A DNA stretch of 45,148 nt from Nitrospinaceae bacterium (GCA_029261635.1 JAJDAW010000029.1:1-45148), one strand, 5' to 3'; shown: positions 1-32,003, counted from the first letter of the stretch. Notes: a model not told the origin generated them from the sequence alone. Numbers and translations are program-made.

Positions 1-1
1 T

Positions 2-5430: not shown

Positions 5431-5451
5431 AAAAAAAGAATTGAGGAAGAA

Positions 5452-6726: not shown

Positions 6727-6742
6727 TGGTATGGTGTTTGCA
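6727..6742 (+). promoter_or_regulatory. Candidate sigma54 (RpoN) -24/-12 promoter upstream of flgJ-flgN-flgK-flgL
   Basis: TGGTATGGTGTTTGCA has GG and GC at the canonical spacing. It lies ~34 nt upstream of the flgJ ATG, in the only sizeable intergenic gap of the cluster. Confidence 0.6.
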
Positions 6743-6775
6743 ACTAATTTAACAACTATGAGTTGAGGATTGATT

Positions 6776-7249
6776 ATGGGACCCCTAAGTTCGGTTCAGA
6801 TGCAAAAAGATTTATTTTCGCAGATGTCAGAAAAGAACATTGAAAGATTAAGAAACTCGTCTTCCTTTGGGCAATTGAATTCGGATAAAGATATTGAAAA
6901 AGTTTCTCGTGATTTTGAATCTATATTTTTGAACAAGCTATTATCTTCCATGCGTAAAACGGTACCAAAATCAGGTCTGTTGGATAGTTTCGCAACAGAT
7001 ATGTTTCAGTCCATGATGGATGAAGAAATGTCTAAAGAAATGGCAAAAAATAAAGGTATGGGTATGGGAGAGATGATTTACAACGATCTTAGCAATATCG
7101 ATCGTGTGAGTCGTGGTAAAGCCGTTCAATCAACTTATACGAATATTAAATCGGCTCCGGTAGCTTCAGGAATAAAGTTGCCTGACTCGACAGCACCAGG
7201 AATTAAATTACCGGACCCAACAGTCTCGGGAATAAAATTGAAGGAGTAA
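6776..7249 (+). CDS. flgJ: FlgJ-like rod-binding protein (no muramidase domain)
   Basis: FESIFLNKLLSSMRKT...MFQSMMDEEMSKEMA fits the Rod-binding domain pattern. ATG at 6776 is preferred over the listed TTG at 6770 because GAGGA sits 6 nt upstream. The C-terminus carries 3 tandem GIKLPD-type repeats. Confidence 0.8.
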   Translation: MGPLSSVQMQKDLFSQMSEKNIERLRNSSSFGQLNSDKDIEKVSRDFESIFLNKLLSSMRKTVPKSGLLDSFATDMFQSMMDEEMSKEMAKNKGMGMGEMIYNDLSNIDRVSRGKAVQSTYTNIKSAPVASGIKLPDSTAPGIKLPDPTVSGIKLKE

Positions 7250-7252
7250 TAT

Positions 7253-7756
7253 ATGAATAGGCTATATAAGAACCTTCAGGACTTATTGGAACAAAAAGCT
7301 CGCTTGTATGAAAAATTCATCCAACTGCTGAATGAAGAGTGGAAATGCGTGACTGAGTATTCCTACGATGGTTTGCAGGAAATTATTGCTAAAAAAGATG
7401 ATCAAGTAATGCAAATGCAGGCTTTGGAGAATAGCAGATGCAGCTTGATGAAAAAAATTGCGGCCCATCTAAAAGTGGGGCAGTCTGGATTAACCTTAAA
7501 AAAACTAATTCAATATAAAGAAAATCCCTATCGCGTAAATTTATCAAAGTGCAGAAAAAATTTACTTTCAAAAATCCAAAAAATAAATATTCTAAGCGCA
7601 AAAATAAAAGCTCTGATGGATCACTCGGCGCTTTCTTTAAAGAAGTCGCTTGCTTTCATTCATTCTGAAGGTGAAAAAGCTCATTCCCCCTATGAGGCCA
7701 ACGGCCAAGTAACGGAAGGTAGAGTGCAGAGTAGAATGGTTAGTGTTGATGCTTGA
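7253..7756 (+). CDS. flgN: FlgN-like flagellar export chaperone
   Basis: 167-aa helical protein (LQDLLEQKARLYEKFIQLLNEEWKCV...) located immediately upstream of flgK/flgL, as FlgN usually is. The call rests on position plus pattern. Confidence 0.5.
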   Translation: MNRLYKNLQDLLEQKARLYEKFIQLLNEEWKCVTEYSYDGLQEIIAKKDDQVMQMQALENSRCSLMKKIAAHLKVGQSGLTLKKLIQYKENPYRVNLSKCRKNLLSKIQKINILSAKIKALMDHSALSLKKSLAFIHSEGEKAHSPYEANGQVTEGRVQSRMVSVDA

Positions 7757-7785
7757 TCTTATGGTTATAAAAGGATCTTTGTTAA

Positions 7786-14664: not shown

Positions 14665-15165
14665 GCTGCACTTCACGGGCATCCTGCTCAACCTTTCCTG
14701 CGATCAAATCTACATGTTTAAACTTCATTGCAGCAATGGCTTTATCTCGAGTCCCGGTATGTAATGTGAACGCGACTTGAGCATGGTTCCAGAGTAGAGA
14801 CCTTCTGTTCACGACGGGCCATTGCGACGCGCATGTCTTTATCGGATATATTGCAATAGTGAGCGGGGCTTGTATTCCGACTGACCTGAAAGCCACTTGA
14901 AGATTTTTTGAGGATTGCCAGAGTAGAATGTAGGGGCGCCTTACTTTGTCGTTTGGCTTCCTCCTTTTAAAAAAGAAAAGTAACAGCGCTAGATTCGTTC
15001 ATTATTGGCATTGTGTGTTGTCATGGTCTGATGCTTTCTATCTGAAGTTACTGTTTAAGGTGGGTTGGTTACTATCTACTATGTGTCGCAAGCCCTCCGG
15101 AAAAGTGATGCTCACTATTCCTTGAATTTGAACTAATTTGTCTAAACTGGATGTGTGAGTATTGG
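14665..15165 (-). pseudogene. Decayed 5' half of a tyrosine recombinase gene, plus the 3' tail of its HTH partner; paralogous to 16907-17615
   Basis: Collinear nucleotide similarity to the intact copy (e.g. gggcatcctgctcaacctttcctgcgat.aaatctacatgttt.aacttcattg; ctatctgaagt.actgttta.ggtgggtt.gttactatctactatgtgt). It has several internal deletions and the catalytic half is missing. The listed ORF 14627..14896 is a fragment of this remnant. Confidence 0.8.
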
Positions 15166-16230: not shown

Positions 16231-16309
16231 AAAAACAAAAAAACCCAGCAAAATTGCTGGGTTATGGATGCTATTGGATTTCCTGGTATGTAAAGTTGGT
16301 GGGGCGGGG
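16231..16309. repeat. Distal direct repeat (att-like): copy of the ssrA terminator plus the last ~14 nt of tmRNA
   Basis: Matches 31579-31658 with only a handful of mismatches. Similarity ends at ...ggtgg[g/a]gcgggg. Confidence 0.85.
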
Positions 16310-16398: not shown

Positions 16399-17514
16399 TT
16401 ATTCTGACTGGCCTAGAACAGCCTTTGCAAGTTTTATAGCATCCAGATTCATAGCTTTTTGTTGCGGTGTAGACAAGCCCCTGATGATCTCGCCTTGACG
16501 CTCATTCCCCACCTCACCATAGCTATAGAAAGTTGTCAGCACTTTTTCATGACCGAGGTTTTGACTCCATGCCTTGAACTGTTCGGGAGTTTGACAAATC
16601 GTTTCGCCCAATCCTACGAGAGTGTTTCTAAAGCTATGTGGATTAAAATAGGATAATCTGCCACTTTCAAACGCATCACGAAAAATTTTACGAATCGGCG
16701 TGGCATTACTCCAGTGCTTCCGATCCAAGCCGACTGCTTCAAACTGATGGTTGACCCCGACCTTCACCAGTGTAGCTGGAAATATTGGATCGTCATTTCC
16801 CCAAAGTTTTTCCTCACACAAATATGTCACCCAGTCAGTAACAATTTCGAGAAGCTCATTACCAACCGGAAAAAAGAAAGTCGTGAAGGTTTTGCTGAAT
16901 TTAGTCTTCACTTCGCGGGCATCCTGCTCAACCTTTCCTGCGATTAAATCTACATGTTTCAACTTCATTGAAGCAATGGCGCTATCCCTCGCACCAGTGA
17001 GAAGCGTAAATGCGATTAGGGAGCGATTCCTTCTTTCGATCTCCGTACCTATCGGCATTGTTGAAATGATATGCTTTACCTGTTCCAAGGTTGGGGCTTT
17101 CTGTTCTCGCTGGGCCGTTGCGATCCGCATGTCTTTATCGGATATATTGAAATACTCAGCATCGCAGTAGTGAAAGCGGGATTTGTATCCCGACTGACCG
17201 GAAAGCCATTGAAAAAATCTTTTAAGATTTGCGAGAGTCGAGTGAAGAGTCGCTTTGCTCAGCTTTTTCCCAGTCTGTTGGTTGTTCTGCTCAGCAAGAT
17301 GATTTTTGAAAGCAACCGCTTGCTCATAATGAAACTTCTTAAAGTCCCGGTATTTCGTATAAACCTCGAATCGGTTCAGGGCTTTGGCCATCGCGTCTAC
17401 GGTCGGTTCACTTTGCCGCTTGGCTTCCTTCAAAAAAGAAAAGTAACGGCGTTTAATTCGTTCGTTATTAGCATTGTGTGTTGCCATGGTTTTATACTCC
17501 CTATCTGAAGTCAC
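16399..17514 (-). CDS. Tyrosine recombinase / site-specific integrase (intact)
   Basis: 371 aa. SAM-like N-terminal part; catalytic residues visible (LLTGARDSAI, HSFRNT, LGHEKVLTTFYSYG). Confidence 0.9.
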   Translation of the reverse strand: MTSDREYKTMATHNANNERIKRRYFSFLKEAKRQSEPTVDAMAKALNRFEVYTKYRDFKKFHYEQAVAFKNHLAEQNNQQTGKKLSKATLHSTLANLKRFFQWLSGQSGYKSRFHYCDAEYFNISDKDMRIATAQREQKAPTLEQVKHIISTMPIGTEIERRNRSLIAFTLLTGARDSAIASMKLKHVDLIAGKVEQDAREVKTKFSKTFTTFFFPVGNELLEIVTDWVTYLCEEKLWGNDDPIFPATLVKVGVNHQFEAVGLDRKHWSNATPIRKIFRDAFESGRLSYFNPHSFRNTLVGLGETICQTPEQFKAWSQNLGHEKVLTTFYSYGEVGNERQGEIIRGLSTPQQKAMNLDAIKLAKAVLGQSE

Positions 17515-17527
17515 TGTTTACGGTGGG

Positions 17528-17971
17528 TTAGTTACTATCTACTATGTGTTGCAAACCCTCCGTTAAAGTGATGTCCAATATCTCTTGAATTTGAACTAAT
17601 TTGGACAGACTGGTGCGGCGGTTCATGCCCACTCCACAGTCTGGACAAATTCCAAAAAGGTTTCCCAGTGTTTCGGTTGCAGGTTGGTAGTCCACCATAT
17701 TCCCGGCTGGAACTTTGGGGCTACGGCACCGGAGACAATACATTTGATTTGGTTTGCATGGCCGTTTTTTTTTCACCCGTCGAGCCTGGAGAAAAGCGGA
17801 AAGATCACGGCCAAGAATCAGCATAGGACGTTTTTCATAAATGCAGGGAAGACCTTCCTTGATCCAAATGCGTACAGTATTTTTGTGGACACTGAGCAGA
17901 GAGGCGGTTTCTTCCACGGTGTAGTTGCGATGGATTTTTACCAGACGATAGTTGGAGTTTCGTTTTCCCAT
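17528..17971 (-). CDS. Excisionase-family HTH protein with C-terminal CxxC...CxxC zinc ribbon
   Basis: YTVEETASLLSVHKNTVRIWIKEGLP (HTH_17-like). CLRC...CPDC. Lies 13 nt upstream of the recombinase in the same operon. Confidence 0.65.
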   Translation of the reverse strand: MGKRNSNYRLVKIHRNYTVEETASLLSVHKNTVRIWIKEGLPCIYEKRPMLILGRDLSAFLQARRVKKKRPCKPNQMYCLRCRSPKVPAGNMVDYQPATETLGNLFGICPDCGVGMNRRTSLSKLVQIQEILDITLTEGLQHIVDSN

Positions 17972-18585: not shown

Positions 18586-19368
18586 TTACTTTTTCATGTT
18601 TTTGCGGATGGTTTCCGGGCTATAGTTTTTCCCAATGTGCATATTGACAATCTGTAGAGCATACCAATTGTCTGATCTATCAGAATTTTTTCTTTTCAAT
18701 TCTCGATAGGCTTTCTGCCAGCCCTTATGTCTCGCCTGGGTATCCAGTTTATTGACTTCGCGCCTGGCTATTGAAGGGTCATATCGGTTTGCAGGGGGAG
18801 ACCGATCAACCATATTGAAAATGGCCTTCTGATCTATCTTGATTCCGCTATTTTCAAAATAAATAATTTCATTCAGCAGGAGTGAATACTCAGAAACTTT
18901 CAGCGACACGCGTTCCCCGCAAACCAATTCCAAAGAGCCTGTTTTTTTATTACCCTGCAAATCCCCGAGAAGAAAAATTTTGGTTTTCTTATCCTTTTTG
19001 GGTTTGGATTTTATACCAAGTTCTTGGCTAATCCATCCCGCAACCTGTCTTTCGGTAATTTGCCATTGTTTAAGGTAATCCAACGGAATGGGTATTCGTC
19101 CCATATCGTCACGCCGGTCACAAGCAACAAAGGCTCGTATGGTTTTTGCATTTACTGTTGGGGAAACATGTACCGGCATGAAACAGTTTTCTTCGCAACC
19201 CGGACACACTACCGACTTGGCAGGTTCTTTTGGCTTAATCCAACCCGCATTGAGAAATATTTCCAGCGCACCCTCTGGCCATTGGCGAATCTGTTCCCAT
19301 GAAACTGTGTCACCTTTTTTTAAACCAAGAGTCTGAGTCAGATCATTTAGAACATCATCCAATTTCAT
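18586..19368 (-). CDS. Hypothetical protein (260 aa) with a CPGCEENC motif; second gene of the island operon
   Basis: Long clean ORF. Its start overlaps the upstream stop (ATGA). Basic C-terminus. No family recognised. Confidence 0.6.
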   Translation of the reverse strand: MKLDDVLNDLTQTLGLKKGDTVSWEQIRQWPEGALEIFLNAGWIKPKEPAKSVVCPGCEENCFMPVHVSPTVNAKTIRAFVACDRRDDMGRIPIPLDYLKQWQITERQVAGWISQELGIKSKPKKDKKTKIFLLGDLQGNKKTGSLELVCGERVSLKVSEYSLLLNEIIYFENSGIKIDQKAIFNMVDRSPPANRYDPSIARREVNKLDTQARHKGWQKAYRELKRKNSDRSDNWYALQIVNMHIGKNYSPETIRKNMKK

Positions 19369-20555
19369 GAGGCGTTTTTGTCTTCGGTTGTTTCAAGTTC
19401 AATGGGTTCAATGCCGGAATCAGTCAGCATATTGCGGATAACCAAATCCCTTCCATCGTGACTAAGGGCGCACCAGTTGGGGTAACTTATTTTGAAGGTG
19501 CGTGTCCGGCTTCGGGTTTCGGGTGTTGGGGCAAAAACAACTTTTATCTCTGCCTGGGTGACATGAAATGGCGGTAGCTTGAGTTCTTCAATCAAATCAT
19601 AAATGGCTTTCGTATCAGGGGTAGGATCAGACTCAACAGTCACCCGCCGTTTCTCCCCAATTTTCAAACTCAATCTTAACTTTTTCACTGCCACTTCTTC
19701 TATTCCACAGTCCACCGGATACTTAAAAATAAAATCCCGATCCGTTAAAGTATCCAGAGCATATACTAGGTTGTCACCGACAAACTCTTCAAGCTCATCG
19801 AACCCGAGAACAGCATCCGCAAAAATCTGTTGTAATTGAGGAACGGACTTCGTATTGCGCGGAGCATAAATATCCAGCGATCCCTCAGCCTGAGTGTAAA
19901 CAAAGATAATTTCAAAAGCGGGTTGTCGGGCGCGATTGGAGAGAGAATTGCGAACCCATTCTATTCCGGACTGGGCGAAGTCCTCTGGGTAAGCAAAGAA
20001 ATACTCCTTTTCATTGCGGCGGAAAACCTCCACCTTGCAATTGCGCCCCCGGCCCTCCTTACTATAAAAATAGTTGCTGAGGGCATCCTCTAACTGTTTG
20101 GTGCTCTCTTCATTCACATTAGGTGGTAGGTGAGGCAAATCATTGCGTTTCTTCCAGAGAGATTCCGAAATGTTGTCCGAGTGTAGGAACAACCAGGCCC
20201 CAGCCCAGTATTTAGGATATTCTAAAAAAGTCCACATAACCTTGCCATGGAATCCATCAACTTTAGAAATAGCCTCGGGAAACTTTGTATCGTTATGATA
20301 ATTAGCCTCATCGGTCAATGCCATCACGCCACCTTGGTTGGCCATAGTGTCGATGTCCTGAAATTCCGCCCCAATTTTGGCTTGTTGCTCGGGGAGTAAG
20401 GCGATGAAGGCATGAAAAATAGGGTTAACCTCTGTTTCTTTTAATTGTTCAAAGTCGATCTTCTGCAACACGTTTTTCTTTTCTTGAAAATATCGCCCAA
20501 GCAAGACATTGGGAACGCGGCGGAAAAATTGGGTAGGAGAGTATTGGTGGGCCAT
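19365..20555 (-). CDS. Hypothetical protein (396 aa); first gene of the island operon
   Basis: Long clean ORF with an ATG start. No family recognised. Confidence 0.65.
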   Translation of the reverse strand: MAHQYSPTQFFRRVPNVLLGRYFQEKKNVLQKIDFEQLKETEVNPIFHAFIALLPEQQAKIGAEFQDIDTMANQGGVMALTDEANYHNDTKFPEAISKVDGFHGKVMWTFLEYPKYWAGAWLFLHSDNISESLWKKRNDLPHLPPNVNEESTKQLEDALSNYFYSKEGRGRNCKVEVFRRNEKEYFFAYPEDFAQSGIEWVRNSLSNRARQPAFEIIFVYTQAEGSLDIYAPRNTKSVPQLQQIFADAVLGFDELEEFVGDNLVYALDTLTDRDFIFKYPVDCGIEEVAVKKLRLSLKIGEKRRVTVESDPTPDTKAIYDLIEELKLPPFHVTQAEIKVVFAPTPETRSRTRTFKISYPNWCALSHDGRDLVIRNMLTDSGIEPIELETTEDKNAS

Positions 20556-20864: not shown

Positions 20865-21038
20865 TATTAGGGTATTGCCCTACAATGGGTAAGTGTGATA
20901 AATTGACATCTGCTGTAAACTAATATCGGATTGCCAATATGGGATGTTAAAGGTAAGATCCTAAATTTAGTAACACTTGGTATTCCAGTTCAAGCACGAG
21001 CAGGTAGTTTTCTGAGTTTTAGTTCAAATGGGGTGGTA

Positions 21039-21611
21039 ATGTCGATGTCTGTTTTAAAAGTTTTGCTGGCTTGCAAAGCTGTCATTTTATTCCTGCTTTT
21101 TGCTACCTCTCTTTATGCAGACAATGGGTCGATTGATAACTCGTTTTCCAGTAAAGATAGCGACTCCGAAAAGCTACTAGTGAGAACTCTGCGCAACCTA
21201 CAGTTTGGGGATGTGATTCCCATTAGGCAGGGTTTAGTAGTAGTTATTGAGCCTGCCACCGGAAATAAGACGGTTTTAGAAGGTATTGACGGAGGGGGTC
21301 GGTATGGTCCGGCTAAATTCGAGGTAAAAGGTCAGCCAAACAAGCAGTTTGTGGTTACGTTGCCCGACCAAATAGTCATGCTGGGGACGGGCATTAGGTC
21401 TGAGCTTTCCAGTTTTACGGCTTATCTTCCTCCCGATCAGGGAACCAGTCCCAACTCAAGTGGGCCAAAGACGAGTATGAGAGATGTCGTTGGTAGTCTG
21501 GATCAGTACGGTAAAGCCATAATTCTGGTTGGAGGGAAGTTCGTTTCGCGGGGTCGCCAAGCGGGAATAGGTATGTGTGTATTCTCGGTATTTGTAGATT
21601 ATTTACCCTGA
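21039..21611 (+). CDS. Divergent DUF4402/SCPU-like fibre subunit (first gene of the locus)
   Basis: Signal peptide (VLKVLLACKAVILFLLFATSLYA). LQFGDV...AKFEVKGQPNKQFVVTLP...LVGGKF...VFVDY follows the DUF4402 layout. ATG at 21039 is preferred over the listed TTG at 20931. Confidence 0.55.
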   Translation: MSMSVLKVLLACKAVILFLLFATSLYADNGSIDNSFSSKDSDSEKLLVRTLRNLQFGDVIPIRQGLVVVIEPATGNKTVLEGIDGGGRYGPAKFEVKGQPNKQFVVTLPDQIVMLGTGIRSELSSFTAYLPPDQGTSPNSSGPKTSMRDVVGSLDQYGKAIILVGGKFVSRGRQAGIGMCVFSVFVDYLP

Positions 21612-21638
21612 ATGGAGAGAGTGCCATGATGGGTTGTC

Positions 21639-22310
21639 TTGGAGGGCAATTTGTTAGATAAACGGTTATTTGGCGTAAGGCTCATTTTTGTAATGACGCT
21701 CTTACTGCCATGCTGGATGCCAAAAAACATAGATGCAGGAGTTGTGGGCGCAGGGCGGGGAACGGCGACCGTAACTGTGCCAGTAGTGGGCTCAATAACC
21801 AAGCCGCTCAAATTTGGCCTGATCTTACCCGGAGGGCGAAGAGGCAGCGATGGAGTGGTTGTGGTCACTCCCCAAAACAGACGTTTTACCAGGGGAGGTG
21901 TCAGGCTGGGTAATTGCGGTGATGACGGAGACAAAGACAAGGGCAAAGACAAGGACAAAGACAAAGACAAGGACAAAGACAAACATCGAGAAAGTAATCA
22001 GCGCGGAGGTAGAAGCAATCATGGAGATTGCACATTTAGCCGGGCCGAGTTCAATATGGCAGGTGCACCCAACACTTCTTTCATTGTTACCCTGTATAGC
22101 TCACCCGCTAGCCATACTGGCGGACATGGAAAAAATTTGCAGATTGCAAACCTCAAAAGTTTCAGTGTTACGCAAGGCGCTAATAGCTCGACAGGTCTGT
22201 TTGACGCGAGTGGTAAAGAAACAATCTGGGTGGGTGGCTCCCTTCAAGTTCCGGCACGGGCGAAAAAGGGCAGCTACACAGGAAAGATTACCTTGACGGT
22301 TAACTTTTAA
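21639..22310 (+). CDS. DUF4402/SCPU-like subunit with a Cys-flanked (Asp-Lys)n insertion
   Basis: GRGTATVTVPVVGSITKPLKFG... and C-terminal VGGSLQVPARAKKGSYTGKITLTVNF. The start is uncertain (TTG at 21639 or ATG at 21693). Confidence 0.6.
   Translation: MEGNLLDKRLFGVRLIFVMTLLLPCWMPKNIDAGVVGAGRGTATVTVPVVGSITKPLKFGLILPGGRRGSDGVVVVTPQNRRFTRGGVRLGNCGDDGDKDKGKDKDKDKDKDKDKHRESNQRGGRSNHGDCTFSRAEFNMAGAPNTSFIVTLYSSPASHTGGHGKNLQIANLKSFSVTQGANSSTGLFDASGKETIWVGGSLQVPARAKKGSYTGKITLTVNF
21930..21983 (+). repeat. In-frame hexanucleotide microsatellite (GACAAR)9
   Basis: gacaaa gacaag ggcaaa gacaag gacaaa gacaaa gacaag gacaaa gacaaa encodes DKDKGKDKDKDKDKDKDK. Confidence 0.95.
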
Positions 22311-22502
22311 GAATTGTTGTTTTTTTGTGGAGAAGAAATAACAAGCCAGACCACCCTCTGAAAGTCGATCTGGTCAAAAAAACTCACCGCTTTCAAAGTG
22401 GTAGTAGCAAAACTCGCAGTTTGAGGCTATGAGATTAGTAAAGGGTTAATCGTATAGCGCGATCCATTTATCTAAATTTTCTTTATTTTAAGGAATACGA
22501 TT

Positions 22503-22994
22503 ATGAAAATAAAAAGCATGTTGAAAATGGTAGCAGCAGTTCTTTTGATCACCAGTATGGCAGCTTCAAATGCATTGGCCGCAGATGGCACGGGTACGGC
22601 CACCGCTTCGGTGGTGATACCACTCGCCATGACAGAAATTAGAGTTTTAAATTTTGGTTCATTTTCGCCCAGTGCTTCTCCAGGGGTAGTACATATCGCA
22701 AACGGTTCATGGACTGCCAGTGGAGGGGTAACACTTATAGCGGGTGGTGGCGGTATCACTGGTATATTTGGTTTAACTGGACAACCCAACACAACCTATT
22801 CCCGCTCGATTGACTCAGTTATGACCCTGAGTAATGGTTCGGATATAATGACTGCAAACCTCAATTCTTTGGGTTCACTTATAAATTCAGGCGGAACTGG
22901 AGCAGTTGTGGTAGTTGGTGATCTAAGCGTTGCAGCAAATCAGCCAACGGGTGTTTATACGGGAACCTACAATCTTTCCGTTAACTATAACTAA
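22503..22994 (+). CDS. DUF4402/SCPU-like fibre subunit, tandem paralogue 1
   Basis: Signal peptide ...ASNALA/ADGTGTATASVVIPLA. C-terminal NQPTGVYTGTYNLSVNYN. RBS present. Confidence 0.8.
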   Translation: MKIKSMLKMVAAVLLITSMAASNALAADGTGTATASVVIPLAMTEIRVLNFGSFSPSASPGVVHIANGSWTASGGVTLIAGGGGITGIFGLTGQPNTTYSRSIDSVMTLSNGSDIMTANLNSLGSLINSGGTGAVVVVGDLSVAANQPTGVYTGTYNLSVNYN

Positions 22995-23044
22995 ATAACT
23001 GTTCCTAGTTTTCTTATAATTCTTAATTCGGGGAGTAATGCATT

Positions 23045-23551
23045 ATGAAAGTAAAAAGCATGTTGAAAATGGTAGCAGCAGTTCTTTTGATCACCAGTAT
23101 GGCAGCTTCAAATGCATTGGCCGCAGACGGTACCGGTACGGCCACCGCTAATGTAGTCGTGCCTCTCGCTATTACTAATACCATTGATTTGAACTGGGGT
23201 ACTTTTGCTCCTGATCCAACAACGCCAGGTACTGTTGAGGTTCCGGCAGCACAAGCGGGCCCCTTCAATTCAACGATCGTATCTTTATTGGCTCAAGGCT
23301 CAACTGGAACCATGGCTTTGACTGGTGACAACAACCGAAATATTATTACCACTATGAGTGCCAACCCTCATATTTTTACGGGAACCAATCCTGCAAACAT
23401 CATGACCGGAAACCTCAGTGTCCTTTCCCCTACTGCAACAGATTCTTTGGGAGGGGGAACAGTTTATATAGGTGGAGTTTTGGATGTGGGTGCGGGCCAA
23501 CCTGCAGATGTATACAGCGGTAACTATACGATTACTGTTAACTATAACTAA
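23045..23551 (+). CDS. DUF4402/SCPU-like fibre subunit, tandem paralogue 2
   Basis: ADGTGTATANVVVPLAITN..LNWGTF...GAGQPADVYSGNYTITVNYN. Confidence 0.8.
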   Translation: MKVKSMLKMVAAVLLITSMAASNALAADGTGTATANVVVPLAITNTIDLNWGTFAPDPTTPGTVEVPAAQAGPFNSTIVSLLAQGSTGTMALTGDNNRNIITTMSANPHIFTGTNPANIMTGNLSVLSPTATDSLGGGTVYIGGVLDVGAGQPADVYSGNYTITVNYN

Positions 23552-23560
23552 AATAATTGG

Positions 23561-23583
23561 ATGGGTCGTGTAACGCGATCCAT
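23561..23583 (+). promoter_or_regulatory. Intercistronic RNA stem-loop, copy 1
   Basis: atgggtcgtg-taa-cgcgatccat, a 10-bp stem including G.U pairs, 10 nt after the stop codon. Confidence 0.55.
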
Positions 23584-23604
23584 GTTATTTGAAGGAGTAC
23601 GACT

Positions 23605-24102
23605 ATGAAAGTAAAAAACATGTTGAAAATGGCAGTAGCAGCTCTCTTGTTTTCTGGAATGGCAGCATCCAGTGCATTGGCCGCAGACGGTACCGGTACG
23701 GCCACCGCTAACGTTGTTGTGCCTCTGGCTATTAATGAGGTTAGTCCTCTGAATTGGGGAACATTTGCTCCTGACCCAAGCAGTCCAGGTACTGTTACGG
23801 TTGGTACAACGGGTGTCCCTTCTTCAACGGTTGTATCTTATTTGACTCTAGGTGACCCAGGAATATTCAGTGTGACAGGTGACGGGAGTCGATCTTTTAT
23901 TACCAGTTTAAGTGCTAACCCTCATACCTTTACGGGTGCCAATCCTGCAAATACTATGACCGGAAATCTCGTTTTCCTTGCCCCTCCTGCTCTTACTGGT
24001 GGCGTTGCTGGAGTTCAAGTAGGAGGAACTTTGGATGTGGGTGCGGGTCAAGCTGCAGATGTGTACAGCGGTAATTACACGGTTACCGTTAACTATAACT
24101 AA
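23605..24102 (+). CDS. DUF4402/SCPU-like fibre subunit, tandem paralogue 3
   Basis: Same conserved ends. GAAGGAG RBS. Confidence 0.8.
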   Translation: MKVKNMLKMAVAALLFSGMAASSALAADGTGTATANVVVPLAINEVSPLNWGTFAPDPSSPGTVTVGTTGVPSSTVVSYLTLGDPGIFSVTGDGSRSFITSLSANPHTFTGANPANTMTGNLVFLAPPALTGGVAGVQVGGTLDVGAGQAADVYSGNYTVTVNYN

Positions 24103-24111
24103 AATAAATAG

Positions 24112-24136
24112 ATGGGTCGTGTAACGCGCGATCCAT
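24112..24136 (+). promoter_or_regulatory. Intercistronic RNA stem-loop, copy 2
   Basis: atgggtcgtg-taacg-cgcgatccat. Confidence 0.55.
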
Positions 24137-24162
24137 CCATACAGTGATAAAGGAATGCGACT

Positions 24163-24663
24163 ATGAAAGTAAAAAACATGTTGAAAATGGCAGTAGCAGC
24201 TTTATTGTTTTCTGGAATGATAGCTTCAAATGCATCGGCTGCAGACGGTACCGGTACGGCTACCGCTAGCGTTGTTGTGCCTCTCGCGGTTACCAATGTT
24301 CTTGATCTTAACTGGGGTTCTTTTTCTCCCGACCCAACAGTCCCCGGCACTGTTTCAGTTCCTGCGGATGGCAGCGCTGCTTCTTCAACGGTAGTATCAA
24401 TATTGTCGACAGGCTCGCATGGGCACATGACTGTGACGGGTGATGGTAGCCGGAGCTTTACCTCTTCTATAAGTGCTAACCCTCATACTTTTACGGGAAC
24501 CAATCCTGCAAACACCATGACCGGAAACCTCAGCCTTGACGCAGAAATTGCTCTCGTTGGTGGTTTTGGTGATATTGATGTGGGCGGAGTTTTGAATGTT
24601 GGTGCGGGTCAACCTGCAGATACATACAGCGGAAACTACACGGTTACTGTTAACTACAACTAA
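24163..24663 (+). CDS. DUF4402/SCPU-like fibre subunit, tandem paralogue 4
   Basis: Same conserved ends. Confidence 0.8.
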   Translation: MKVKNMLKMAVAALLFSGMIASNASAADGTGTATASVVVPLAVTNVLDLNWGSFSPDPTVPGTVSVPADGSAASSTVVSILSTGSHGHMTVTGDGSRSFTSSISANPHTFTGTNPANTMTGNLSLDAEIALVGGFGDIDVGGVLNVGAGQPADTYSGNYTVTVNYN

Positions 24664-24672
24664 AATAAATGG

Positions 24673-24695
24673 ATGGGTCGCGTAACGCGGCCCAT
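24673..24695 (+). promoter_or_regulatory. Intercistronic RNA stem-loop, copy 3
   Basis: atgggtcgcg-taa-cgcggcccat. It differs from copy 1 at paired positions while keeping the pairing. Confidence 0.55.
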
Positions 24696-24716
24696 GTTAT
24701 TTGAAGGAGTACGACT

Positions 24717-25214
24717 ATGAAAATAAAAAACATGTTGAAAATGGCAGTAGCAGCTCTCTTGTTTTCTGGAATGGCAGCATCCAGTGCATTGGCCGCAGAC
24801 GGTACCGGTACGGCCACCGCTAATGTAGTCGTGCCTCTCGCTATTACCAATAGCCTTGACCTTAACTGGGGTACTTTTGCTCCCGATCCAACAACCCCAG
24901 GCACTGTTACAGTTCCGCCCATTGGTGCTCCCAGTTCAACGGTTGTGTCTTATTTGAACCCAGGTACTGTAGGGTTAATGAATGTGACAGGTGATGGTAA
25001 CCGGAGTTTTGAGACTTCCATAAGTGCTAATCCTCATACCTTTACGGGTGCCAACCCTGCAAACACCATGACTGGACAGGTTGTTATTGTGGCACCTCCC
25101 GCTCTTGCTGCTGGTGTTGCTCAAGTTTTAGTAGGCGGAGAATTGGCTGTTGGTGCGGGTCAAGCTGCAGATGTGTACAGCGGTAATTACACGGTTACCG
25201 TTAACTACAACTAA
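24717..25214 (+). CDS. DUF4402/SCPU-like fibre subunit, tandem paralogue 5
   Basis: Same conserved ends. The 5' end is a mosaic of paralogues 3 and 2. Confidence 0.8.
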   Translation: MKIKNMLKMAVAALLFSGMAASSALAADGTGTATANVVVPLAITNSLDLNWGTFAPDPTTPGTVTVPPIGAPSSTVVSYLNPGTVGLMNVTGDGNRSFETSISANPHTFTGANPANTMTGQVVIVAPPALAAGVAQVLVGGELAVGAGQAADVYSGNYTVTVNYN

Positions 25215-25328
25215 ACAGTTGATCATTTGTAACTGGGTTTGGAGTGCCTTTTCTTGTTCTCTTTTCAGACAATAAAGGCTAATATAGGGGGTTGAATTTT
25301 GTGTTTAACATAAAGAGGCCGTGAAATT

Positions 25329-26264
25329 ATGAAAAGGGTTTTTGAATTAGGCAGTGGGTCTTTTTCTTCAAAGTTTTTAAAAGCCAAAGGGCTTGTGTCT
25401 TTTTTTAGTTGTTTCCTTTTTCTTACCCTCGCGGTAATGGGGCAGGGTATGGCTTTTGCGCAGGAAAAAGAAGGTGGTGTTGGTAGTGTTATGGTTGCCC
25501 CGACCCGCATTGTTTTCGAGGGCCGTACACGGTCTGCGCAAGTGAAAGTGATCAATCAGGGCACTAAAGCAGGTACCTATCGCATCAGCTTCAAAGATAT
25601 GCGTATGAAGGAAGATGGAACCTACGAAGATGTTAAAGAAGCTCTGTCCGATGAAAAGTCCGCTAAGGATCTAATTCGCTATTCCCCTCGTCAGGTAGTG
25701 TTGAAGCCAGGAGAATCCCAAACAGTTCGCTTGCTTTTGCGAAAAAAGAAGGGGCTCCCGGAAGGTGAATATCGTTCTCATATGTTATTCACTGCTCTTC
25801 CTCCTGAAGATGCAGGGGCAGACATTGAGTCTCTTGCTGGTAAAGATGGTGAGGTGACTTTGAAGTTGTTCGCCATCTTTGGTGTGTCTATCCCAGTCAT
25901 TGTTCGGCATGGAAAGGGTTCGGCATCAGCAGAAATGGCCGACCTCAAGCTCAAAGAACCTGAAGAACCCGACGCCCCCGATGCCCAAAAGACTGTTTCC
26001 ATACGTCTTAACAGGAAGGGCAACCAATCTCTTTATGGCGATATTCATGCCAAATTTACACCCAATGGTGGTGGCGAGGAGTTGGAGGTTGGTGTGATAA
26101 CAGGGGTGGCCGTCTACGACCCAAATAAAACCCGAGTGATTAATCTAAAGTTGAACCCTCCAGAGGGAACGGAACTTAAGCAGGGACGTTTGCATGTGGT
26201 TTATCGAGACGACCCAGATAAGAGTGACAAAATTTTGGCTGAAAGCCAGTTACAGATACCCTAA
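25329..26264 (+). CDS. PapD-like periplasmic pilus chaperone
   Basis: Signal peptide, then VMVAPTRIVFEGRTRSAQVKVINQGTKAGTYRISF and RYSPRQVVLKPGESQTVRLL, the PapD_N-type pattern. Position is between the subunit genes and the usher-like gene. Confidence 0.75.
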   Translation: MKRVFELGSGSFSSKFLKAKGLVSFFSCFLFLTLAVMGQGMAFAQEKEGGVGSVMVAPTRIVFEGRTRSAQVKVINQGTKAGTYRISFKDMRMKEDGTYEDVKEALSDEKSAKDLIRYSPRQVVLKPGESQTVRLLLRKKKGLPEGEYRSHMLFTALPPEDAGADIESLAGKDGEVTLKLFAIFGVSIPVIVRHGKGSASAEMADLKLKEPEEPDAPDAQKTVSIRLNRKGNQSLYGDIHAKFTPNGGGEELEVGVITGVAVYDPNKTRVINLKLNPPEGTELKQGRLHVVYRDDPDKSDKILAESQLQIP

Positions 26265-26272
26265 GGCGGTAT

Positions 26273-29200
26273 TTGAAATTATGTTTTGGGAAAATATTCC
26301 GATACGTATTAATGCGTGCATATATTTGCATTTTGGGCGTTGCCTTTCTGGTAATGTCCGGGGTGGCATTTCCACTTTTTACCGAAGCCAAAGGGGCGGC
26401 GACCCCTGTGGTTTCGCAGGAGCCTGATAAAAAGACCACATCCTCCGAAACACCCTCCCCCGCAACTTCGCAAGCTCCTGATAAAACAACCGAACCCTCA
26501 GTTACGCTTCCACCAGATAAAGCAGGATCACCTTCTGCAAAAGATACTAAAGCAGATCAGGTTGAGGCAAAAGCTCCCGGGAATAGTCAGGAAAGTGTTT
26601 TTGACCTCTCCAAAGCAGAGTTTCTGGTTCTAGAACTTCGGTTTGACCGTTATATTTTGAATGATGCTTTACTCGGTTATCTTTATCGCGATAGATTGCT
26701 GCTCCCCTTGGGTGAAGTGGTGCGATCTCTCGACTTTGCTATCAATGTTGATGTTGATGCAAAACGAGCTGAGGGCTGGTTTCTTTCTGAGAATAGGCGG
26801 TTTTTTCTTGATGTAGGCCGCAATGAGCTAGTGATAAACGGACGCGCAAAAAGTTTTGATCCTAATCAGGTGGTTCTTGATCCCGAGGACATTTTTATCG
26901 ATAGTACTCTGCTGGAAAAATGGTTTCCGGTGAATTTCGAGTTTAGCCTTTCGTCCTTGCTTGTAAAAGTAACATCGGAAGAAACACTGCCCTTTCAATC
27001 CCGTTTGCTACGCGAAGAGGCGCAGTCCACTATAGGGCGAGGCTCAAAGGCAGAAAAATACCCGCGGCAAGAACTCCCTTATGTTTTCTTGGACTGGCCT
27101 TCCATCGATTCAAGTTATAATTTTGATTACAGCAATGCTGATGAAGGAAACCTGGGAGCTAATTCCAGTACCTTGATCAGCGGCGATTTCCTTTTTATGA
27201 ATACAGAAGTATTCACGACAGGTAACAAGGATGATGTCATTTCCAGCCTGCGAATGAAAATGGGTCGGGAAGATTCGGATGCAAAGTTACTGGGGCCTCT
27301 CAAGGTCACCGAGTTTTCCATGGGCGATATTTCCAGCCCACAGTTACCGTTGGTAGCCAGAGGTGCAACAGGTGTTGGCCTTCAGCTTTCTAATTTCCCC
27401 TTACGTCAGGAGTCTGAGTTTGACCGGATCAATCTGCGAGGAGAGTTGCAAGCAGGTTGGGAGGTAGAACTATATCGAAATGAAATTCTACTCAACGTTC
27501 AAAGCGAGCCTGATGCTAACGGACGCTATGAGTTTCTGGATGTTCCTTTGTTATTTGGTTCCAATGTGCTACGTCTGGTGTTTTATGGGCCGCAGGGCCA
27601 GAGACGAGAAAAAATTCAGCGCCTGAATGTTGGAGGAGACCAAGCTTCACCTGGAAAACAGTATTTTCGTTTTTCCACAACCTATCAGAACGAAAAATTA
27701 TTTGAAGTAAGTGATCAGGAAACCGATATCTTTGTTGAAAAAGGTGATGGCAAAGCGCGCTATACCCTCGAATACCAACGAGGCCTCAACCGGTGGCTGT
27801 CAATGGATGCAATTTTTGCCAGTCTGCCATTACCGGATGGACGACGTTATTTTAGCACTTTGGGACTAAAAACGGGGCTTTTCGGGGCATCCACACGTGT
27901 GAATTTGACGAAAAATGATGTAGGTGGAACTGCTTTTGAATCTTCTGTTTTGATGGGGTTGGGTCCTCTCAGCATGTTTTTTGAGCATACCCAATTTTTT
28001 GATTTTCTAAGTGAGCGGGAAACCAACACAGGAGATTCGGTTGTCAGCCGCAGTGAAACGCGTTTGGACAGTTCGATACCAGCGTGGTTGTTTGTCCCGC
28101 GTATTCCCTGGTCTATAAGCGGGTCCATGGAAGTGCAAGAGTCAGGTTTAAAACAAATTGAACTCAGTAACCGTCTTTCAGTACTTTATTCAGGAGTTTC
28201 TGCCTCAAACACAACCGATTGGTCGTTAACCCGAGGCGGCGATGCTGAACCCAGCACAAGTGGTTCGGGTTCAGCTCAGTTGAGTGGGCGTATATCTAAT
28301 GTGTCTCTGCGTGGTACTTTGAGTTATGAAATTTTACCAAATACCATTTTCAACAGCGCTTCCCTTAGTAGTGATTTCAAGATCAGTCAGGATTTCAGTG
28401 CTAACCTTGGGTTGAACAAGCAACTCACTGATGATGGGCTGACCAGTTATAGCGCAGGAATTAACCGTCGATTCACGGCATTTTCTATTGGTCTCAATGC
28501 TTCTTATGATAATACCGGTGCCTTTTCTGCGGGTACTTCCATTACTTACAGCCTGGGTCGCGAACCCAGGAAAGGGAGTTGGGGCCATAGTTCTGATCGA
28601 ATGGCCAGTTCTGGTATGGTATCTGTTCGAGTGTTTCTCGACACAAATGCGAATCAGGTTTTTGATGAAGGGGACGAGCCTTTAAAGGGGGTTAAAGTTG
28701 CACCGGGCGGTGATGACCAAAAAACCGATGAGGATGGGATTCTTCTGCTGAGAGGATTGAGTAGTAGCCAGCCCACCAATATCGTTCTGGATACAGATAG
28801 TCTGGAGGATCCCTATTGGGTTCCTTCACGAAAAGGTTATGAAGTGATCGGTCGACCGGGACGGCCCATTATGCTGGAGTTCCCCGTCACCCCTACAGGA
28901 GAAATTGATGGGACTGTATACTTGCTTACGGGTGACTCTGAAAAACCTGTGGGCAACGTGCAGATACAACTGGTAAATGACAAGCAGGAAGTGATCCAAG
29001 AGGTGAAGAGCGAGTATGATGGATTCTACTTGATACAACTGGTACCTCAAGGGCGGTACAGTCTTATAATTTCTCCGGATCAGATCAAGCGGCTGGGCTT
29101 GAAAACTCCTGATCCAAAGGAAGTGATTATTGCAGGAGAAGAAACTCTACAGAGTGGAGTGGATTTACTACTTGAGCAAGTTAACCCTGTAAAAAACAAA

Positions 29201-29662
29201 GCAAAAAAAGAAAAATCCAAATCAGTCAGTGAAAAGTCGACTAATGAAAAATCAGCCAGCTACAAATCCGCTGATGTAAAAAAACCAACTGCTGAGGAGT
29301 CAGATATAGTGGAAATGTCCTCAATGGTCTTTGGACCACTTAACCAACCTCCAAATCAGAGTAAAACTCCTGAAATAGAGACTTCAGATAGCCGGAAATT
29401 GAGTGCTCCCGAGAAAACCCTCAAATTTATTGTAAAAAAAATAAAAGTTGCAGGTAGCAGCCTTTTTCCAAAAGAGGAACTCGAAGCACTGGTGAAGCTT
29501 GACGGCGGTAAAGAGGTTGGCTTGGAGGAGTTAATTTTACTGGCACAGAAACTCACTTCTTATTATGTTTTACACGGTTATTTTTTGTCTAAAGCCTATA
29601 TTCCCGCCCAAAAGCTAATAGATGGGAGTGTTGAAATTTATATGACTGAGGAAAAAAATTAA
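26273..29662 (+). CDS. Giant outer-membrane usher-like protein with a C-terminal beta-sandwich pair, Lys-rich linker and ShlB-type POTRA domain
   Basis: Signal peptide and S/T/P-rich linker. AGWEVELYRNEILLNVQSEPDANGRYEFLDVPLLFGSNVLRLVFYGPQGQ resembles the usher middle-domain motif. C-terminal VRVFLDTNANQVFDEGDEPLKGVKV and GEIDGTVY...GFYLIQLVPQGRYSL modules, then a POTRA_2-like tail. Start is TTG at 26273 or ATG at 26312. Confidence 0.6.
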   Translation: MKLCFGKIFRYVLMRAYICILGVAFLVMSGVAFPLFTEAKGAATPVVSQEPDKKTTSSETPSPATSQAPDKTTEPSVTLPPDKAGSPSAKDTKADQVEAKAPGNSQESVFDLSKAEFLVLELRFDRYILNDALLGYLYRDRLLLPLGEVVRSLDFAINVDVDAKRAEGWFLSENRRFFLDVGRNELVINGRAKSFDPNQVVLDPEDIFIDSTLLEKWFPVNFEFSLSSLLVKVTSEETLPFQSRLLREEAQSTIGRGSKAEKYPRQELPYVFLDWPSIDSSYNFDYSNADEGNLGANSSTLISGDFLFMNTEVFTTGNKDDVISSLRMKMGREDSDAKLLGPLKVTEFSMGDISSPQLPLVARGATGVGLQLSNFPLRQESEFDRINLRGELQAGWEVELYRNEILLNVQSEPDANGRYEFLDVPLLFGSNVLRLVFYGPQGQRREKIQRLNVGGDQASPGKQYFRFSTTYQNEKLFEVSDQETDIFVEKGDGKARYTLEYQRGLNRWLSMDAIFASLPLPDGRRYFSTLGLKTGLFGASTRVNLTKNDVGGTAFESSVLMGLGPLSMFFEHTQFFDFLSERETNTGDSVVSRSETRLDSSIPAWLFVPRIPWSISGSMEVQESGLKQIELSNRLSVLYSGVSASNTTDWSLTRGGDAEPSTSGSGSAQLSGRISNVSLRGTLSYEILPNTIFNSASLSSDFKISQDFSANLGLNKQLTDDGLTSYSAGINRRFTAFSIGLNASYDNTGAFSAGTSITYSLGREPRKGSWGHSSDRMASSGMVSVRVFLDTNANQVFDEGDEPLKGVKVAPGGDDQKTDEDGILLLRGLSSSQPTNIVLDTDSLEDPYWVPSRKGYEVIGRPGRPIMLEFPVTPTGEIDGTVYLLTGDSEKPVGNVQIQLVNDKQEVIQEVKSEYDGFYLIQLVPQGRYSLIISPDQIKRLGLKTPDPKEVIIAGEETLQSGVDLLLEQVNPVKNKAKKEKSKSVSEKSTNEKSASYKSADVKKPTAEESDIVEMSSMVFGPLNQPPNQSKTPEIETSDSRKLSAPEKTLKFIVKKIKVAGSSLFPKEELEALVKLDGGKEVGLEELILLAQKLTSYYVLHGYFLSKAYIPAQKLIDGSVEIYMTEEKN

Positions 29663-30107
29663 AAAGATTCATGTTGCCGACATTAAATATTTTAATAAAA
29701 AACCGGTTGATACGAAGCGCATCAAAGCAAAACCAAGTAGTAGAAAACCAGCCAGCCACAAACCCATTGATGCAAAAAAATCTACTGCTTCTAAACTAGC
29801 TATCGAAGAAGATTTGTTAGACAGGTTTTTACCGTCCCCAAAGTCACCTTACGAATCTTCCCCTAAGGCTGAAGCACCTGAAATCAATGTTCAAGATAGA
29901 CGAGAACCAGTTGATCCCGAAAAAGGCCCCAAACTCCTTGCAAATAAAGTTGAAGACGCTGGTAACAGCCTTTCCCTAAAGGAGGAACTAGAAGCATCGG
30001 TGAAATTGAATGAAGGTAAAGAGAGAGGCATGGGGGTGATGTTTTATTGGCGGGCTGCTGCATTTACTTATTTCGGAGCGTGCTTCTTTCTATGTATCTC
30101 AGGATAA
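29663..30107 (+). pseudogene. Out-of-frame (+1) continuation of the usher-like gene: rest of the POTRA strand plus a truncated divergent duplicate of the linker and POTRA start
   Basis: The +1 frame from 29649 reads (E)KIKKIHVADIKYFNKKPVD...KPASHKPIDAKK...KVEDAGNSLSLKEELEASVKLNEGKE, paralleling 29248-29520. Similarity is lost after ~30030. Confidence 0.5.
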
Positions 30108-30276
30108 TTTTTTATTTAAAGTCGACATTTACGCCAAAAACTAACAAATAGGATTGTTAAAATTAGAGTGGGCTTCATTGACTAGACAGTTTTTCATGGA
30201 AATAAGATAGTAAGAATGTGTAAGTAGCAGGTCCCACGGGCAATAAGGAGTGGGGAAATAAAATAAGCACAAATCC

Positions 30277-31482
30277 TCAAGCCCCTCGCCGTAACGGAAT
30301 CACTTCCGCACCAGCTTTTAGTTTGTCAAGATAATCCGCCCATTGTTGCATCATCTTCTTACGTTCGTGAAGGTGTGCTGTTCTGTTATACGCCCGTCCA
30401 TTAGGATCACGCACGGCATGGGCTAGTTGGTGTTCAATGAAGTCGGGACGAACTCCCAACACTTCATCCAGAATCGTTCTGGCCATAGCTCGGAATCCGT
30501 GACCGCTCATTTCTTCTTTGCCGATTCCCATGCGCCGCATTGCCGCGAGGATAGCGTTGTCGCTCATAGGTCGGTCTTTGCTACGCGCTCCCGGAAAAAC
30601 ATAACGTCCGTTTCCCGTTAGAGGTTGTATTTCCTTTAAGATTTCTACAGCTTGCCAGGACAAGGGAACAATGTGGAGGGTGTCGGTTTTGGTCACTGTA
30701 TAACGCCATTCCAGTTTTTCAAAATCAATATCCTTCCATTCGGCTTTGCGCAATTCGCCGGGGCGAACGAATACTAAAGGCGCAAGGCGTAGAGCACAGG
30801 CAACAATAAGGGAACCTTCATAGCCATCGATGGCCCGCAAAATTTCTGCCACTTGTTTGGGTTCTGTAACGGCGGCGAAGTGCTCACCCTTTGCCGGGGG
30901 TAATGCGCCACGAAGGTCGCCGGAGGGATCGCGCTCGGCGCGTCCGGTAGCAACCGCATAACGGAAGACTTGCCCACAGTTTCCCAAAGCCCGGTGCGCT
31001 GTTTCCAAGGCTCCTCGCTTTTCAATTCGCTGTATCGCAGAAAGCAAAACTGGTGCGGTTACGTTGGCAATCGGTTTGTCACCAATCCAAGGGAACACAT
31101 CCCTTTCGAGACGACGAATGATTCGACCACCATGATCGGCGGTCCAGTTCGTAGAGTATTTGGCGAACCACTCCCTTGCAATAACTTCAAAACTGTTTCC
31201 TCCACCGTTTGCTAACTTTTGAGCTTTCCGATTTTCGCTCGGATCAATACCATCTGCTAACAACTTACGGGATTCATCACGCCGTTCCCTTGCCATCTTC
31301 AAAGTCACGTCAGGGTAAACGCCAAGGGAAAGGCGTTTTTCCTTTCCATTAAATCTATACTTTAACCGCCACCACTTTCCACCGTTCGGGGAGACTTCCA
31401 TATATAGGCCGCGTTCATCATATAGTTTGATGGTCTTATCGCCGGGCTTGGTGTTTCGGATTGCGGTGTTGGTTAGAGGCAT
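30277..31482 (-). CDS. int: P4/CP4-57-type (DUF4102-containing) tyrosine integrase
   Basis: MPLTNTAIRNTKPGDKTIKLYDERGLYMEVSPNGGKWWRLKYRFNGKEKRLSLGVYPDVTLKMARERRDE is the canonical N-terminus. Catalytic HGFRAMART...HQLAH. ATG at 31482 has AAGGAG 8 nt upstream and is preferred over the listed TTG at 31521. Confidence 0.9.
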   Translation of the reverse strand: MPLTNTAIRNTKPGDKTIKLYDERGLYMEVSPNGGKWWRLKYRFNGKEKRLSLGVYPDVTLKMARERRDESRKLLADGIDPSENRKAQKLANGGGNSFEVIAREWFAKYSTNWTADHGGRIIRRLERDVFPWIGDKPIANVTAPVLLSAIQRIEKRGALETAHRALGNCGQVFRYAVATGRAERDPSGDLRGALPPAKGEHFAAVTEPKQVAEILRAIDGYEGSLIVACALRLAPLVFVRPGELRKAEWKDIDFEKLEWRYTVTKTDTLHIVPLSWQAVEILKEIQPLTGNGRYVFPGARSKDRPMSDNAILAAMRRMGIGKEEMSGHGFRAMARTILDEVLGVRPDFIEHQLAHAVRDPNGRAYNRTAHLHERKKMMQQWADYLDKLKAGAEVIPLRRGA

Positions 31483-31578
31483 GGGGGCAACTCCTTTTTG
31501 GGGCAGGCTAGTAGCCCCCAATTATGCCCCCAGTTGCCCCCGGATGTCAATAAACTCTATGGGGCAAATCTGGACAGT

Positions 31579-31658
31579 TAAAAGCAAAAAACCCAGCAAA
31601 ATTGCTGGGTTACGGATGCTATTGGATTTTCTGGGATGTCAAATTGGTGGAGGCGGGG
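31579..31658. repeat. Proximal direct repeat (att-like) overlapping the ssrA 3' end and terminator
   Basis: Partner of 16231-16309. Confidence 0.85.
31584..31610 (-). terminator. ssrA terminator
   Basis: On the minus strand: cccagc-aatttt-gctggg followed by tttttt. Confidence 0.75.
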
Positions 31659-32003
31659 GGAATCGAACCCCCGTCCGAAAGGTTTTGGTCAAAGGCGTCT
31701 ACATGCTTATCTTCTGATTTAAATCTTGTTCCGACGAACTCCCAGAAGCAGGATTAAGTCGAAACCAGTTCCTAAAAATCTCGTCCCATTTACTCGGAAC
31801 ATGTAAACAGAACCAGTTCGCTGAGTGACGTCCGACCCACATCCCGCGAACATGGACATGGCGGACGGTAACCGTTTAAATTAAGCGGCTACAGCTACAT
31901 CATAATCGTTGGCGATTATGTAAAAGCCGTTTTTTAACGGGCCAACGGCATCCCGTGCATGCAACCCTTGCGTCTGCTCTCCCGTCGAATCCGGATCGCC
32001 CCC
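31645..32003 (-). ncRNA. ssrA: tmRNA (SsrA)
   Basis: Minus strand 5' GGGGGCGAUCCGGAUUCGACGGGA...GCAUGC...GUUGGCC.GUUAAAAA... and 3' ...GGACGGGGGUUCGAUUCCCCCCGCCUCCACCA. Acceptor stem has a G3:U pair. Tag reading frame GCC AAC GAU UAU GAU GUA GCU GUA GCC GCU UAA gives ANDYDVAVAA (31881-31913). Confidence 0.92.

Follow-up and report, generated by a model that had tools for sequence, protein, structure and literature searches.

Chaperone-usher pili serve as a textbook case of fibre assembly without ATP and are targets for drugs and vaccines. The classical ushers PapC and FimD begin with an N-terminal domain and end with two C-terminal domains; in between lies a barrel of 24 strands, whose plug is inserted between strands 6 and 7. 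Caf1/F1 antigen is an amorphous capsule-like polymer, and the spore-coat-U system of Myxococcus is a coat. The catalogue of chaperone-usher systems rests on recognisable usher sequences, and CsuD of the archaic (sigma) Csu system is recognisable as an usher in this way. Here we analysed 45,148 nucleotides (nt) from a Nitrospinaceae bacterium (GCA_029261635.1, JAJDAW010000029.1:1-45148; the whole stretch is called the window below), in which seven genes for Pfam DUF4402 proteins are followed by genes for a PapD-like protein and for a large protein of 1129 amino acids (aa). In our reading these genes probably form a complete operon for a chaperone-usher secretion and assembly system, a very divergent one, that makes a probable surface fibre. 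The presence of a chaperone-usher-type machine is well supported, while fibre formation and donor-strand exchange are what we infer. The locus extends a known mechanism; the mechanism itself is not new.

A preliminary description of this DNA had proposed nine plus-strand open reading frames (ORFs) encoding such a locus. All nine were found at their proposed positions, back to back and intact (21039-29662; Table 1). For gene 1, position 20931 marks a TTG-extended ORF, and an ATG at 21039 or 21045 is the likelier start. That the locus is a complete chaperone-usher-like system with DUF4402 subunits was borne out by three results, namely the Pfam matches, the usher fold and the three-part synteny.

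The strongest structural matches came from the 1129-aa protein. An AlphaFold2 (AF2) model built from a 38-sequence alignment had a mean predicted local distance difference test score (pLDDT) of 78, mostly above 90 over residues 110-970. When this model was compared with the Protein Data Bank using Foldseek, ranks 1-18 were all FimD or PapC (E = 1.3e-27 to 2.9e-13), with about 920 columns aligned to full-length ushers, and barrel-only structures were matched too. DSSP assigned six barrel strands (residues 277-373) and then eighteen (463-763) with the plug in between, so that domain order and plug are those of the classical Fim/Pap ushers. The motif GWEVELYRNE...FYGPQGQ falls in the plug domain. 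The proposal of an usher thus held for fold and domain order, but not for the hidden Markov model (HMM) check, as PF00577 (Usher) gave no match to the 1129-aa protein at E<=1. Since PF00577 is silent, the identity of this protein as an usher is visible from its fold alone.

The lack of an usher HMM match, together with LptD and TonB-dependent receptors among the lower Foldseek matches, could be read as the sign of an unrelated outer-membrane barrel, LptD-like or TonB-receptor-like, whose linkage to DUF4402 genes has some other meaning. However, at least 20 orders of magnitude in E separate these next barrels (near 1e-6) from the ushers (1e-27), the placing of the plug and both the N-terminal and the C-terminal domains are as in ushers, and a PapD_N protein always adjoins. 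We consider an unrelated barrel extremely improbable.

Sequence comparison of the large protein gave faint signals. Among 38 relatives, seven gave a faint PF00577 match (best E = 0.0029), and an hhalign comparison of the usher family with E. coli FimD covered 57 columns of one C-terminal domain (E = 0.057). Searched against solved structures, the protein matched only the POTRA domain of TpsB as a sequence and the SdrD B domain as a profile, and sub-threshold CarboxypepD_reg and SdrD_B matches lay near residues 880-935. The system differs from classical Fim/Pap in its level of identity (about 10%) and in C-terminal usher domains that resemble SdrD_B and CarboxypepD_reg, and, unlike CsuD, its usher-like protein is not recognisable as an usher by sequence. 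The closest homologues came from Nitrospina and Nitrospinaceae, with 61-72% identity in Nitrospina. Homologues measured 880-1230 aa, occurred in many lineages beyond Nitrospina and were labelled 'hypothetical' or 'carboxypeptidase regulatory-like'.

The second component, a 311-aa protein carrying VMVAPTRIVFEG, had been described as PapD_N-like, and the PF00345 search agreed, with a score of 28.4 bits against a cut-off of 23 bits. We collected 60 homologues of this chaperone from neighbouring genes at other loci, and 53 of them matched PapD_N at E<=0.01; RefSeq annotates the homologue on a Polaromonas plasmid as 'fimbria/pilus periplasmic chaperone'. Three motifs were conserved: P58-T-R60, R117-Y-S-P120-R121 and G146-E-Y-R149-S-H. 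P120 was present in 60/60 homologues and R60 and R149 each in 59/60, with R117 and R121 near-invariant. Chaperones of chaperone-usher systems have a single invariant proline, in strand D1 (PMC4654587), and P120 may correspond to it. In a weak hhalign comparison of the chaperone family profile with E. coli FimC (E = 0.013, probability 3.4%), P120 stood opposite the FimC PP and R60 opposite Arg8 of classical chaperones. The same low-confidence alignment paired the FimC A1 and F1-G1 motifs with their counterparts, VAPTRVVFEG with GATRVIYPAG and LxxGEYRSHLxFxAVP with LPQDRESLFWMNVKAIP, a fit of motif inspection and not of score. The archaic chaperone CsuC has a non-classical anchor, Arg89 in strand F1, 30 residues past Pro59, plus a Tyr and an Arg in domain 2 (PMC4654587). 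R149 sits at a similar distance, 29 residues past P120.

The third component is the set of seven small, secreted proteins. All seven scored above the gathering cut-off of Pfam DUF4402 (PF14352; 42.8-70.5 bits against 25.2), as proposed, and all 142 small ORFs adjoining usher-like genes elsewhere matched this family as well. DUF4402 is a family without a described function. A literature search for DUF4402 and its family identifiers, and for an usher in Nitrospina, found no paper in the library that was searched, in line with the earlier statement that no member has been characterised. The L.FG/LNWG and C-terminal VGG.L.V...Q..G.Y.G...VN[YF] motifs said to be shared by the subunits were present, but the ending YN is true for only five of the seven. 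Conservation extended to the 142 relatives, with F51 in 128, G52 in 136, Y157 in 131 and the penultimate Y in 115. Directly after the signal peptide, small or hydrophobic residues alternate with polar ones (positions 33, 35 and 37 were hydrophobic in 76%, 86% and 81% of the 142 members, positions 34 and 36 in 7% and 15%). At the C-terminus, positions 161, 163 and 165 were hydrophobic in 98-99%, followed by the penultimate Tyr, as in the C-terminal strand of classical Fim/Pap subunits. Alternating segments at both ends are the marks expected of donor and acceptor strands.

The predicted subunit fold was also compared with solved structures. In an AF2 model of the mature gene 4 product (pLDDT 92; predicted template modelling score 0.82), residues 1-15 lie outside any strand; the DUF4402 Pfam domain begins at precursor residue 41. 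The model was built on a shallow alignment of 23 sequences, because word-indexed homologue searches yielded so few proteins (6 with the subunit query, 21 with the 142-sequence subunit alignment). About 30 of its top 33 Foldseek matches were chaperone-usher pilins, namely CfaB, Caf1, CS17, the PapG and CsuE pilin domains, CsuA/B and FimA/F/G/I. CfaB and Caf1, of the alternative (alpha) CFA/I and Caf1 systems, were the best matches, though weak (E = 2.5e-3 to 1e-2, template modelling (TM) score 0.41-0.51), and Caf1 also consists of single-domain subunits only. Unlike those systems, the window has seven subunit genes in three classes, and there is no sequence relationship. The preliminary description had instead placed the subunits with the spore-coat-U (SCPU) and Csu families. 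No support for this was found: PF05229 (SCPU) gave no match at E<=1 in the window subunits and a noise-level match (E = 0.04) in 2 of the 142 relatives, and CsuA/B ranked only 23rd in the Foldseek list (E = 0.15), behind CfaB and Caf1.

The locus resembles archaic Csu in having several small subunit genes before the chaperone and usher genes and in its broad non-enteric distribution, and differs in its subunits, which lack an SCPU match and include no CsuE-like two-domain tip. It differs from classical Fim/Pap in that all subunit genes precede the chaperone gene. As proposed, no two-domain tip adhesin is encoded, all subunits being single-domain proteins of 163-223 aa.

The seven subunit genes fall into three classes, and the same classes occur in the same order in a chromosomal Nitrospina locus (L087), which also has seven subunit genes and whose usher is 61% identical. 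The product of gene 1 (class A) has a polar and charged N-terminal segment (SFSSKDSDSEK) without the alternating-hydrophobic extension. Its counterpart in the Nitrospina locus is 46% identical, likewise ends in DYLP and lacks a hydrophobic N-terminal extension. Gene 2 (class B) has GTATVTVPVV as its N-terminal segment and is 50% identical to its Nitrospina counterpart, with a K/D-rich insert in both. In subunit 2, a loop contains a (DK)n run that stems from an in-frame (GACAAR)n repeat (21924-21982), and this part of the gene is possibly a region of slipped-strand length variation.

The five class C paralogues (163-168 aa) are near-identical in the signal peptide, in the mature N-terminus ADGTGTATA[NS]VV[VI]PLA and in the C-terminus Y[ST]G.Y.[ILV][TS]VNYN. 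DNA repeat families recur across their genes with a spacing of about 555 nt. Identity among class C proteins was 44-81% inside a genome, as in the window, against 32-39% between the window and the Nitrospina locus (5989-8920). That they are closer within than between genomes indicates either concerted evolution or independent expansion. With ends so nearly identical, the genes may have undergone gene conversion, or may have expanded in parallel while their ends were constrained.

Spacers after class C genes 4, 5 and 6 contain GC-rich, near-identical hairpins ATGGGTCGYGTAACGCGRYCCAT (23561-23583, 24111-24137 and 24673-24695) with folding free energies of -13.7 to -19.3 kcal/mol, and a further, incomplete copy precedes gene 3. 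These hairpins are possible attenuators or mRNA-stabilising elements, which could set the stoichiometry of subunits to machinery.

On the model of described systems, assembly may run as follows. Subunits would cross the inner membrane via Sec, and the chaperone would then cap them by donor-strand complementation, with SH-[LM]-x-F-x-A-[VIL]-P as the candidate G1 strand and with R60, R149 or both as candidate anchors for the subunit carboxylate. The usher N-terminal domain would recruit chaperone-subunit complexes, and the N-terminal extension of the incoming subunit (ADGTGTATANVVVPL, mature) would displace the chaperone strand of the previous one by donor-strand exchange. The fibre would exit through the 24-strand barrel after the plug had swung out. 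Because gene 1 lacks the N-terminal extension, its product would be incorporated first, which makes it a candidate distal tip subunit; gene 2 would act as a putative adaptor. The five class C paralogues could be the major shaft subunits or alternative ones, perhaps interchangeable or mixed, with variable surfaces. The product would most likely be a thin adhesive or biofilm fibre.

Several results weigh against this reading. Beyond the silence of PF00577, neither PF05229 nor PF00419 matched the window subunits, and PF00419 matched none of the 142 relatives. Pfam gave no PapD_C (PF02753) match in the chaperone, in which about 110 residues lie beyond domain 1. The chaperone site aligned with the classical Lys112 varies (R in 30 and Q in 20 of 60 homologues, T in the window protein). 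When family profiles of subunit, chaperone and usher were compared with solved structures, no chaperone-usher protein was matched; in these searches the subunit query and profile matched no pilin, and the chaperone query and profile gave nothing significant. The Foldseek matches of the subunit are individually weak (best E = 2.5e-3, TM 0.40-0.51). The C-terminal POTRA fusion of the usher-like protein, described below, is unusual and could disturb its function, and no fibre has been seen so far for any family member.

The same export machine might instead make something other than a discrete pilus, either an amorphous capsule-like polymer or a DUF4402 surface or cyst coat, in which the paralogues would represent coat diversity. 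The absence of a two-domain adhesin, the many single-domain paralogues and the place of Caf1 among the best structural matches all suit such a product, although three classes in a fixed gene order resemble a division into tip, adaptor and shaft. The present data do not separate coat from fibre, and we hold the coat or capsule to be unlikely.

A divergent chaperone-usher-type system of this kind is not confined to the window. When a collection with one genome per species was scanned by pattern, at least 562 stretches encoded a relative of the usher-like protein, nearly all from metagenome-assembled genomes. Carriers included Zixibacteria, Nitrospinales, Nitrospirales, Alpha- and Gammaproteobacteria, Desulfobacterales, Acidobacteriota, Akkermansiaceae and Rickettsiales. 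An exhaustive HMMER search for the usher-like family returned 3,284 clusters at 50% identity (E<=1e-30). In a survey of co-occurrence, all 44 loci with complete flanks, which came from at least eight phyla, encoded a chaperone and 1-6 DUF4402 genes next to the usher-like gene, and all 44 kept the order subunit-chaperone-usher. The seven subunit genes of the window, called unusually many in the preliminary description, do exceed the 1-6 seen in these loci, but are equalled in the chromosomal Nitrospina locus. The DUF4402 system is common in environmental bacteria.

The synteny extends to Nitrospinaceae, to an endosymbiont of Ridgeia and to a plasmid of Polaromonas. Among cultured bacteria, the system is carried on plasmids of Polaromonas, Sphingopyxis, Novosphingobium and Pseudoalteromonas. 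On the conjugative plasmid 2 of Polaromonas sp. JS666 (3161-8502 of locus L085, at 66-72 kb of NC_007950), three subunit genes precede the chaperone gene and the usher-like gene, whose product RefSeq labels carboxypeptidase-like. This operon is flanked on both sides by IS6 transposase genes, a second case of operon mobility, and provides a handy experimental entry point in a cultured strain.

It is possible, although we put this forward more tentatively, that DUF4402 loci represent a separate, deep-branching clade of chaperone-usher systems, spread over environmental bacteria, mostly uncultured, from at least eight phyla. Such a clade would make heteropolymeric fibres of three subunit classes, with the shaft class in concerted evolution so that variation in each genome falls on the surface and spares the donor and acceptor ends; the window usher would additionally have captured a POTRA domain. 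The clade would be invisible to usher-based classification because PF00577 misses its ushers. Irrespective of this, a large usher-like family escapes the sequence-based usher criterion, and its members are so far unstudied. If DUF4402 proteins do polymerise by donor-strand exchange, a function could be assigned to a Pfam domain of unknown function, and the pathway would extend to Nitrospinota, Nitrospirota, Acidobacteriota, Zixibacteria, Desulfobacterota and others. It would also provide a distant outgroup for ancestral features, such as the type of carboxylate anchor and the fold of the usher C-terminal domains.

The window usher differs from its relatives at its C-terminus. Its sole above-threshold Pfam match was a ShlB-type POTRA_2 domain (56.8 bits), which was present in 1 of 38 family members, the window protein itself, and whose end coincides with the stop of the ORF. 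The domain follows a disordered K/S/E linker of roughly 80 residues that is also found in the closest relative. About 500 nt downstream lies a decayed second copy of the POTRA-coding segment, at roughly 70% identity as estimated from the alignment, with a remnant ORF at 29814-30107. Between 29662 and the integrase gene we found only short ORFs and this decayed copy. The tail may be a remnant of a tpsB gene. A two-partner secretion transporter (TpsB/ShlB/FhaC) was rejected as an identity for the protein, which has one POTRA_2 domain only and no 16-strand barrel; there is also no TpsA gene.

Table 1. Positions of the operon genes, the domains of the usher-like protein and the elements of the ssrA island in the window.
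Feature	Position (nt)	Residues (aa)	Strand	Remarks
Subunit gene 1, class A	21039-21611		+	DUF4402 42.8 bits; signal peptide; C-terminus DYLP
Subunit gene 2, class B	21639-22310		+	DUF4402 59.2 bits; C-terminus VNF
Subunit genes 3-7, class C	22503-22994, 23045-23551, 23605-24102, 24163-24663, 24717-25214		+	DUF4402 57.7-70.5 bits
PapD-like periplasmic chaperone, 311-aa precursor	25329-26264		+	PapD_N 28.4 bits
Usher-like outer-membrane protein, 1129 aa	26273-29662		+	Usher fold in AF2 model
Signal peptide and disordered S/T/P/K linker		1-108		
Usher N-terminal domain	26618-26977	116-235		AF2 model
24-strand barrel	27101-28561	277-763		AF2 model, DSSP strand count
Plug, small sandwich	27425-27631	385-453		Between strands 6 and 7
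C-terminal sandwich domains 1 and 2	28613-29179	781-969		
POTRA_2 domain after disordered K/S/E tail	29423-29650	1051-1126		56.8 bits
Decayed second copy of POTRA-coding segment 29369-29638	29877-30164		+	Local alignment, indels
P4-type tyrosine integrase	30277-31521		-	Arm-DNA-bind_3, Phage_int_M, Phage_integrase; adjoins ssrA
tmRNA gene (ssrA), integration target	31645-32003		-	ARAGORN
Left-hand direct repeat	16232-16309			ssrA terminator copy and last ~14 nt of ssrA
Right-hand direct repeat	31580-31657			At ssrA end

The operon lies in an island at ssrA, the transfer-messenger RNA (tmRNA) gene. This context, also part of the preliminary description, was confirmed by the tmRNA gene, the integrase gene and the direct repeat. 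The 78-nt repeats are 87% identical and enclose about 15.3 kilobases, in which the order from right to left is ssrA, the P4-type integrase gene, the operon, two genes without a Pfam match, an HTH_17 gene, a second tyrosine recombinase gene and the repeat. The operons of relatives sit in ordinary chromosomal settings, and two of them, the Nitrospina locus and locus L001, have a GerE/LuxR regulator gene upstream that the window lacks. With relatives that are chromosomal and carry this regulator, the window copy looks like a transferred Nitrospinaceae-type operon.

The lost regulator might instead indicate that the island copy is decaying or non-functional, its usher gene having become joined to a 5' fragment left over from a two-partner-secretion transporter gene. 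The restriction of POTRA_2 to one of 38 members, in an ORF that ends where the domain ends, and the decayed duplicate downstream would be in keeping with such decay. Against this, all nine ORFs are intact and retain the conserved family residues, the POTRA domain stands behind the disordered linker with the C-terminal domains complete, and relatives tolerate C-terminal add-ons (SPOR in 7 of 38). We therefore rate decay as very unlikely, and retain an intact chaperone-usher-type operon as the preferred reading.

Directly upstream of the operon and divergent from it, two overlapping genes on the minus strand (18586-19368 and 19365-20555) encode proteins of 260 and 396 aa; these are the island genes for which Pfam gave no match, and they stand where relatives have the GerE/LuxR regulator gene. 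An NCBIfam search returned no name for any of the nine operon proteins, and a scan for consensus promoters did not outperform the same scan of shuffled sequence. The second tyrosine recombinase gene (16399-17514) is just inside the left island boundary. Recombinase-like fragments just outside that boundary (14666-15150, compared with 16906-17613) are 78-84% identical to it, which suggests that they are what is left of another island at this ssrA site, either an earlier one or one in tandem.

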